Positions 9,678 through 10,790 of a DNA stretch of 64,000 nt are shown here, in pieces. A program made the position numbers and the translations under genes. A model generated the notes under the pieces. That model had not been told where the DNA came from, did not search any database, and worked only from the letters and a program-made list of their open reading frames with translations. The stretch's first letter is position 1. The number at the start of each line of letters is the position of its first letter. The stretch is from the sequence record PQ330092; one strand, 5' to 3'. This stretch comes from Escherichia phage JP4.

Positions 9678-10790
9678 ATGAAAAAGTATTTGGTTGGTGG
9701 CTACGTCCGTGACCGTTTAATGGGTCTTCGTGCAAAAGACAAAGATTATGTCATTGTCGGAGCAACTGAATCTGATATTAAGTACTTGCAAAGTATTGGC
9801 TATAAGCAAGTAGGTAAGGATTTCCCTGTATATCTAAGTCCAGAAGGTAATGAACACGCATTAGCCCGTACTGAGCGTAAAACTGGTACTGGATATGGTG
9901 GCTTTGAAGTGGATACAAAAGGCGTAACACTCGAACAAGATTTGTATCGCCGTGACCTAACAATAAATGCAATTTCGTATGATCCAGTACTACAAATTCA
10001 TATCGATCCATACGGTGGTAAAGCTGATATCAAGAACAAGGTACTACGTCATGTTTCTGACCATTTTAAAGAAGATCCATTACGTGTGTTACGTCTTGCT
10101 CGATTTGCTACTCGTTATTCAGACTTTACTATCCATGAAAGCACTGAGGAACTCGCTATTGGAATGGTCAATAGTGGTGAGCTAAATCATCTTGTTCCTG
10201 ACCGTGTGTTTGTGGAATTCGAAAAAGCATTTTCCGAAGAAAAGCCTGCAAAGTTCCTTAAGACGCTAAGTAAATTTGGTTATTACGAAAAGGTGTTTAA
10301 TACATCTTTGACCAAAAAGAATTTAGACCTTATTGATTATATTGCAGAGAACTGTACGGATGTATATAAACCATATTTTCTGTGGTCTATTCTTCTTGAA
10401 AATGAAGAAGTAAATAATGATTCAGTACTTAACGGTGCTATTAAAGTTCCAGTTAAGTATGTTAAATTTAGTAATTATATCAAACGTTTCCGTGATGATA
10501 TCAAAACATTCCGTAAAAAGACCCCTATTGAAATGGGTAATATTTTATTGGATATGAATATTAAAAATAACGGAGGTGAAGAATTCCTTTATAAAGTTTT
10601 GGAATACTTCATTTTGCGAAAAGAAATTGATTTAGAACTTGAAGATCTAATTATTAAAGTTTATGATCGTTATACTGATGTTGAATTGCCTGATATTCAG
10701 CAAATGGTCAAAGATGGTGAACTTGAAACGTCAGAAATTCGTGATTTTGTTTGTGAACTTCGTTACGAAGCAATCAAACAAATGTTCTAA
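9678..10790 (+). CDS. cca: tRNA nucleotidyltransferase (CCA-adding enzyme / class II poly(A) polymerase head domain)
   Basis: N-terminal GGYVRDRLMG...DKDYV (GGxVRD + DxD) and RRDLTINA motif diagnostic of class II nucleotidyltransferases. Confidence 0.8.
   Translation: MKKYLVGGYVRDRLMGLRAKDKDYVIVGATESDIKYLQSIGYKQVGKDFPVYLSPEGNEHALARTERKTGTGYGGFEVDTKGVTLEQDLYRRDLTINAISYDPVLQIHIDPYGGKADIKNKVLRHVSDHFKEDPLRVLRLARFATRYSDFTIHESTEELAIGMVNSGELNHLVPDRVFVEFEKAFSEEKPAKFLKTLSKFGYYEKVFNTSLTKKNLDLIDYIAENCTDVYKPYFLWSILLENEEVNNDSVLNGAIKVPVKYVKFSNYIKRFRDDIKTFRKKTPIEMGNILLDMNIKNNGGEEFLYKVLEYFILRKEIDLELEDLIIKVYDRYTDVELPDIQQMVKDGELETSEIRDFVCELRYEAIKQMF

Follow-up and report, generated by a model that had tools for sequence, protein, structure and literature searches.

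CCA-adding enzymes have been listed among the products of huge phages (Al-Shayeb et al. 2020; PMC7162821) and placed among the RNA-repair enzymes of jumbo phages (Iyer et al. 2021; PMC7824862). The paper on phage Sharanji names a tRNA nucleotidyltransferase gene along with seven phage tRNAs (PMC11895373). The literature searched yielded no biochemical work on a CCA-adding enzyme from a phage. Here we analyse a cca-type open reading frame (ORF) carried by a stretch of 64,000 nucleotides of Escherichia phage JP4 (sequence record PQ330092), referred to below as the window. Its product has the fold and the catalytic motifs of a class II CCA-adding enzyme, and a first reading of the sequence had remarked that no tRNA gene accompanies it. 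The reading that we favour, with a probability of roughly 60%, is that the phage enzyme matures tRNAs of its own clade whose genes do not encode the terminal CCA and lie more than 100 kilobases (kb) outside the window.

The relatives matched by megablast are Asteriusvirus (PBECO4/121Q-like) jumbo myoviruses with genomes of ~350 kb. Identity over 25-kb stretches reaches 99.0-99.8% with BAU.Micro_ELP-22 (ELP-22), UB, vB_EcoM_E9.1 and PBECO4. For 121Q, SP27, phAPEC6, Sharanji and further phages the identity is 95-98%. Positions 1-25000 of the window correspond to positions 38272-13276 of PBECO4, and positions 39001-64000 to 345301-319289, both on the minus strand. The orthologue of the cca gene in this phage is gp033 (YP_009150347.1), named 'tRNA nucleotidyltransferase' in RefSeq. 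Orthologues in Asteriusvirus and Rak2-like phages (121Q gp539, Sharanji WNN14700.1, GAP32, CBB) are the same gene with no substantive difference. They have a like length (~370 amino acids, aa) and a like synteny with NUDIX and glutaredoxin genes, with protein identities to JP4 of 87-100% for Asteriusvirus members and 59-69% for the Rak2-like phages. The gene is thus already known from its RefSeq annotation, its PHROG family and its recognised place in the jumbo-phage translation and RNA-repair set. Its naming varies between records: the region matching it has no named tRNA nucleotidyltransferase in MH383160.1 (UB) and KC295538.1 (PBECO4), and KM507819.1 says 'phosphatase'.

The ORF listing of the window gives the gene an ATG start, 370 codons and a TAA stop. 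The product has a full-length match to PHROG 2244, 'tRNA nucleotidyltransferase' (3e-116), and its residues 1-207 share 52% identity with Cca of E. coli K-12 (201 bits), with small gaps and motifs A to D in register. Residue invariance was scored in an alignment of 49 homologues. G7, G8, R11, D12 and D23 of motif A are invariant and D21 is nearly so, the motif being in register with GGAVRD...DRD of E. coli Cca. The motif C region (DPxxG) has D110-P111..G114 invariant and also aligns in register with the host enzyme, while motif D, EDPLR, is identical in E. coli Cca. Between motifs A and B the flexible loop RTERKTGTGYGGF aligns to RTERKSGSGYTGF of E. coli Cca with no internal gaps, and R64, E66, K68, G72, Y73 and F76 are invariant. 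In class II enzymes this loop is required for the addition of A76, and it is deleted in CC-adding enzymes.

An AlphaFold2 (AF2) model built from the 49-homologue alignment has a predicted local distance difference test score (pLDDT) of 94 and a predicted template modelling score (pTM) of 0.87. Foldseek searches of the PDB with this model return class II enzymes only, the best being the CCA-adding enzyme of T. maritima (3h38; E 5e-15; template modelling score 0.72, normalised to the query). The model superposes on solved CCA-adding enzymes across ~300-330 residues, hence body and tail domains are present, and together with the neck they give the architecture of the class. The HD-less class II CCA enzymes of T. 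maritima (3h37/3h38), B. stearothermophilus (1miv) and human mitochondria (4x4w) share 20-25% identity with the phage protein. Solved HD-less class II enzymes are 395-425 aa long, whereas the phage protein has 370 aa and a shorter body and tail. Fold comparison alone does not separate the class II subtypes; the placement with Cca, away from PcnB and the A-adding enzymes, comes from the amino acid sequence.

This last point bears on the proposal that the protein is not a full CCA-adding enzyme at all, being rather a poly(A) polymerase or a class II enzyme that adds only A or only CC. Such a proposal can appeal to the NCBIfam CCA equivalog models, since the phage protein scores under the full-length cut-off of every one of them; with PRK10885, 272.6 bits are obtained against a cut-off of 451, and the model positions matched are 1-207 of 409. 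The divergence of the C-terminal half suffices to explain the shortfall, since no more than aa 1-207 match. Poly(A) polymerase I cut-offs are failed as well (TIGR01942, 95.4 vs 305.65 bits; PRK11623, 49.7 vs 702 bits), four CCA models (272, 234, 205 and 196 bits) outrank the pcnB (95 bits) and A-adding (60 bits) models, and E. coli poly(A) polymerase PcnB shares 31% identity (67 bits) with the phage protein, far from the values obtained with Cca. Together with the intact and invariant flexible loop, this makes a partial or poly(A)-adding activity very improbable. The ORF is predicted to code for a working-type class II CCA-adding enzyme with the head and neck of the E. coli Cca lineage. The earlier note had recognised a class II nucleotidyltransferase by its GGxVRD, DxD and RRD motifs; they are found as GGYVRD, DKD and RRD, with EDPLR in addition. 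It had also reckoned with a protein devoid of the body and tail needed for tRNA binding and grouping with poly(A) polymerases, and neither trait is seen.

The C-terminal half sets the phage enzyme apart from that of its host. E. coli Cca (b3056) is 42 aa longer and has an HD domain, detected by Pfam as PF01966 at aa 229-328 (2e-14). The same search finds no Pfam match, PF01966 included, in the 163 residues of the phage protein from aa 208 to 370. This segment counts no histidine, which rules out an HD phosphohydrolase site. PF01966 is likewise missing from some 80 full-length relatives found in the protein database, and cellular relatives that have it match just the N-terminal 55% of the phage query. 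The distal C-terminus of E. coli Cca is nevertheless remotely homologous to the phage enzyme: when the C-terminal family of the phage proteins is compared by profile-profile alignment (hhalign) with the C-terminus of HD-type cellular enzymes, the probability is 95.6% (E 1e-8) and residues 246-365 of the phage protein pair with residues 280-402 of E. coli Cca, EFHDLIHTF of E. coli standing opposite RFRDDIKTF of the phage. The body and tail probably derive by degeneration from the HD-type C-terminus of proteobacterial Cca. Neither 2',3'-cyclic phosphodiesterase nor phosphatase activity is expected of the phage enzyme, and the label 'multifunctional CCA protein' used in MK817115.1, LT603033.1 and OR545507.1 is an over-annotation because the HD site is absent.

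The substrates of such an enzyme are to be sought beyond the window. ARAGORN finds 0 tRNA or transfer-messenger RNA (tmRNA) genes in the 64 kb; Rfam gives 0 hits at gathering thresholds and, with permissive filters, no tRNA even at E<=1. An ARAGORN scan of PBECO4 (NC_027364.1), covering positions 1-347000 of 348113, the remaining 1.1 kb being a stretch within the window, identified 6 tRNA genes in total. They are all on one strand at 207837-212112 and correspond to Thr(UGU), Asn(GUU), Met(CAU), Ser(GCU), Ser(UGA) and Gly(UCC). Rfam supports 5 of the 6 and adds one borderline tRNA-like hit. The cluster lies ~107 kb past the right end of the window (position 64000 being 319289 of PBECO4) and ~180 kb from cca along the record, and the homologous place has 7 tRNA genes in ELP-22, 6 in UB and 6 in 121Q. 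The tRNA-free window thus reflects its size, 64 kb of ~350 kb, and not biology. A wider comparison agrees: of 80 phage loci from IMG/VR that carry a homologue of cca, only 14 show a tRNA gene less than 10 kb away, so that tRNA-free surroundings are unremarkable. The absence of tRNA genes stated by the earlier note is therefore correct, and nearby genes missed by eye, which it had allowed for, did not come to light. Its interpretation holds in part. Of the substrates it offered, phage tRNAs encoded elsewhere are supported by the 6-7 tRNA genes found far outside the window in genomes 99-99.8% identical, whereas repair of tRNA 3' ends after attack by host nucleases is unsupported, there being no HD domain and a simpler need in the CCA-less phage tRNAs.

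Several features of the tRNA cluster deserve mention in their own right. RefSeq PBECO4 lists no tRNA feature in the stretches covered, and the region matching the tRNA genes carries just 'hypothetical protein'. The cluster is mosaic among phages that are ~99% identical elsewhere: Asn and Met alleles differ, with or without encoded CCA; Arg(UCU), a second Gly(UCC) and Leu(UAA) are variably present; and small ORFs are interspersed. In UB (stretch L009, 6559-6650) and 121Q (L092, 7465-7556) a tRNA with a long arm is called as Ser; its gene encodes no CCA, and its anticodon, ACU, is unusual, AGY Ser codons being normally read by GCU. The borderline Rfam hit of PBECO4 (L005, 12838-12916, minus strand; 29.3 bits vs a gathering score of 29) was missed by ARAGORN. 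It sits directly 3' of Ser(UGA) and has a 3' end C-CAA, not CCA. At the equivalent place the 121Q annotation has tRNA-Leu(UAA), and the PBECO4 hit is probably a decayed Leu tRNA.

The 3' ends of the tRNA genes, read directly in five genomes of the clade, show no encoded CCA in 15 of 31: 3 of 6 in PBECO4, 3 of 7 in ELP-22, 4 of 6 in UB, 3 of 6 in 121Q and 2 of 6 in Klebsiella phage RCIP0023. The acceptor stem is paired at 7 of 7 positions in every gene read. Most CCA-less genes end with the discriminator, one C and an A-rich run (discriminator-C-AAAA), as in Thr (...GTCGGC-A-CAAAA), Asn (...GAGTC-G-CAAAA) and Gly (...CCTGC-T-CAAAA). The top two Rfam tRNA scores (70 and 67 bits) belong to the CCA-less genes for Asn and Thr, and Thr(UGU) with its flanks is present in ~29 Asteriusvirus records, the CCA-less end having been read directly in four. 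E. coli encodes CCA in all its tRNA genes (PMC5824355). With about half of the clade's tRNA genes CCA-less, the phages themselves would encode obligatory substrates for the enzyme. A general association of phage cca genes with CCA-less tRNA genes was considered and rejected, 51 of the 68 tRNA genes within 10 kb of the 80 homologues encoding CCA; the pairing is confined to the present clade.

In the mechanism that we propose, host 3' processing would first strip the A-rich trailer. RNase T is efficient on A/U-rich trailers and blocked by a 3' C (PMC5824355), and it would presumably stall at this residue to leave tRNA-N73-C74. The phage enzyme would then add C75 and A76, or the whole CCA, from CTP and ATP without a template, rendering the phage tRNAs chargeable. 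The same activity could replace an A76 that any tRNA has lost in the normal turnover of its end.

Some observations weigh against this proposal. Cca of E. coli could itself mature these tRNAs, in which case the phage copy may be only quantitatively useful. Coliphage T4 resembles Asteriusvirus in having CCA-less tRNA genes in a host that encodes CCA throughout, and it leaves completion of its CCA-less tRNA precursors to the host CCA enzyme. The difference is that T4 relies on the host enzyme whereas the Asteriusvirus phage has its own cca. Near the cca genes of other phages encoded CCA prevails, with disparate lineages, 19 of 20 in one and 0 of 12 in another. The CCA-less Gly(UCC) gene falls short of the gathering score of Rfam and is possibly degenerate. 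Finally, the tRNA complement of JP4 is deduced from genomes 99-99.8% identical to it, among which the cluster varies.

Maturation of the clade's own CCA-less tRNAs has to be weighed against a role in repair, in which the enzyme would mainly rebuild the CCA tails of host and phage tRNAs clipped by host immune or toxin nucleases. Attacks on this end of tRNAs do exist: Cas12a3 cuts tRNA CCA tails as anti-phage immunity, viral means of resistance being unknown according to its authors (PMC12851939), and toxSAS toxins pyrophosphorylate the tRNA CCA end (PMC11559606). Iyer et al. 2021 class the CCA-adding enzyme with jumbo-phage RNA repair (PMC7824862), and at other places of its genome PBECO4 has genes for polynucleotide kinase, a 3'-5' exoribonuclease and RNA ligase. 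The locus itself speaks differently. The neighbourhood of cca has no defence-related genes, and the HD phosphohydrolase for healing cyclic-phosphate or 3'-phosphate ends is missing from the phage enzyme, while host Cca, already present, retains its HD domain. Cas12a3 releases ACCA including the discriminator (PMC12851939), which a CCA-adding enzyme cannot faithfully restore, and simpler substrates are at hand in the CCA-less phage tRNAs of the relatives. PBECO4 does encode both enzymes of the T4-type repair pathway (Pnk and Rnl) plus Cca, and all three are discussed as RNA-repair enzymes (PMC7824862), but Pnk and Rnl are ~55 kb from cca, share no operon with it and target anticodon-loop breaks rather than 3' ends. 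We regard repair as the main role of the enzyme as unlikely.

The T4-like tRNA-repair set of PBECO4 is scattered and lies outside the window, gp125 (polynucleotide kinase) and gp129 (RNA ligase) being in stretch L002 at 32776-35665. The 3'-5' exoribonuclease is gp438 (L005, 33873-34562), and gp066 is a second nucleotidyltransferase (L001, 44722-45954).

A more speculative thought, which we consider improbable, is that the HD-less phage Cca serves as a counter-defence against Cas12a3-like or unknown E. coli immunity targeting tRNA tails, by rebuilding 3' tails that have been clipped or blocked. In a related version, CCA-less tRNA genes and an own Cca would provide a host-independent supply for translation. 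If true, a counter-defence Cca would be the unknown viral resistance to which the Cas12a3 paper points. Tail-cleaving immunity makes phage cca genes reasonable candidates for counter-defence, a case to which the JP4 locus adds no evidence.

The enzyme could also be a host-takeover tool acting on non-canonical targets, for instance by placing CCACCA degradation tags on host tRNAs or by tailing the tRNA-like ends of phage or host RNAs. CCA-adding enzymes can tag unstable tRNAs with CCACCA, as detected in E. coli (PMC5824355), and the divergent body and tail could shift substrate choice. The searches with ARAGORN and Rfam reveal no tRNA-like element in the 64-kb window, the sequence gives no sign of altered specificity, and the core is highly conserved with housekeeping Cca. 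This makes a takeover function extremely improbable, and maturation of the clade's CCA-less tRNAs remains the role that we favour for the enzyme. The features of the locus are assembled in Table 1.

Table 1. Positions of the cca-type gene, its coding domains and motifs, and its neighbours in the window, followed by the tRNA cluster stretches compared among relatives (positions within each stretch)
Feature	Position	Strand	Basis
cca-type gene, class II tRNA nucleotidyltransferase (CCA-adding enzyme)	9678..10790 (incl. stop)	+	ORF list, Pfam, PHROG, PBECO4 orthologue annotation, AF2 model
Head (Pol-beta-type catalytic) domain, aa 4-124	9687..10049	+	Pfam PolyA_pol PF01743, 3.1e-18
Motif A, GGYVRD aa 7-12 ... 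DKD aa 21-23, catalytic carboxylates	9696..9746	+	translation
Flexible loop RTERKTGTGYGGF, aa 64-76, between motifs A and B	9867..9905	+	alignment to E. coli Cca
Motif B, RRD aa 91-93	9948..9956	+	R91, R92, D93 invariant in 49 homologues; E. coli Cca RRD aligned
Motif D, EDPLR aa 132-136, nucleotide-selecting amino-acid template	10071..10085	+	E132, D133, P134, R136 invariant
Neck / RNA-binding region, aa 149-207	10122..10298	+	Pfam PolyA_pol_RNAbd PF12627, 4.3e-8
All-helical C-terminal body and tail, aa 208-370, without HD active site	10299..10787	+	
LysM/lysozyme gene, upstream of cca	6769-7728		
HPF/RaiA-type ribosome-associated protein gene	7745-8077	+	Pfam Ribosomal_S30AE, 3e-10; PBECO4 gp039
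40-aa ORF upstream of cca (= PBECO4 gp034)	9554..9676	+	sequence; PBECO4 annotation
Shine-Dalgarno-like GGGGGA, 5 nucleotides ahead of cca ATG	9667..9672	+	sequence
NUDIX hydrolase gene, frameshifted, downstream of cca	10868..11300	+	Pfam NUDIX, 1e-12; reading frames
tRNA cluster stretch, PBECO4	L005 9837-14112		
tRNA cluster stretch	L008 3390-8813		
tRNA cluster stretch, UB	L009 3390-8432		
tRNA cluster stretch, 121Q	L092 4683-9970		

The cca gene is a member of a long co-directional gene string, as indicated by the TAA of the upstream 40-aa ORF, which ends one base ahead of the cca ATG. The HPF/RaiA-type gene is found ~1.6 kb upstream, and the downstream neighbours are genes for a NUDIX hydrolase, a glutaredoxin and a deoxynucleoside monophosphate (dNMP) kinase. 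A scan for sigma-70 promoters yielded a number of sites not above that of shuffled controls, and no promoter is claimed. Between an ORF end at 12081 and an ORF start at 12131, ~1.3 kb downstream of cca, a 10-bp GC-containing hairpin at 12090-12113 has the score of a terminator on either strand. Further along the window, positions 32246-32343 give weak Rfam matches, well under the gathering scores, on both strands, to sraA (31.5 bits) and MicX (25.9 bits). The same ~100 nucleotides being matched on both strands, this is probably a hairpin or palindrome and neither of these RNAs.

The NUDIX gene carries a frameshift. From its ATG it reads MRYSCGIIFYRDGQILIGHTT and then meets a stop after 8 further codons, while the ORF with the Nudix box lies in the +1 frame, from GTG 10899 or ATG 10902 to 11300. 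Rak2-like relatives (stretches L012-L016, L019, L022 and L025) have a single intact NUDIX ORF, ...GHTTGQSHWDLPKGK..., compared with which a single C is inserted in the window (ACA ACA C GGA CAG). The frameshift is found also in 121Q (L011) and is implied by the PBECO4 annotation, and is thus conserved in Asteriusvirus. It could yield a truncated protein, mark a pseudogene or be bypassed by +1 frameshifting. A conserved functional pair of cca and NUDIX was considered and rejected: of the 18 loci from the Rak2-like clade 16 show the adjacency, vs 1 of 62 other phage cca loci, and it is a matter of clade synteny.

As a discovery the cca gene of JP4 carries little weight, and the puzzle of a CCA-adding enzyme without tRNAs vanishes in the context of the whole genome. 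What the clade offers are CCA-less tRNA genes in phages whose host encodes CCA in every tRNA gene of its own, and these would provide a concrete, testable set of substrates for the phage enzyme.

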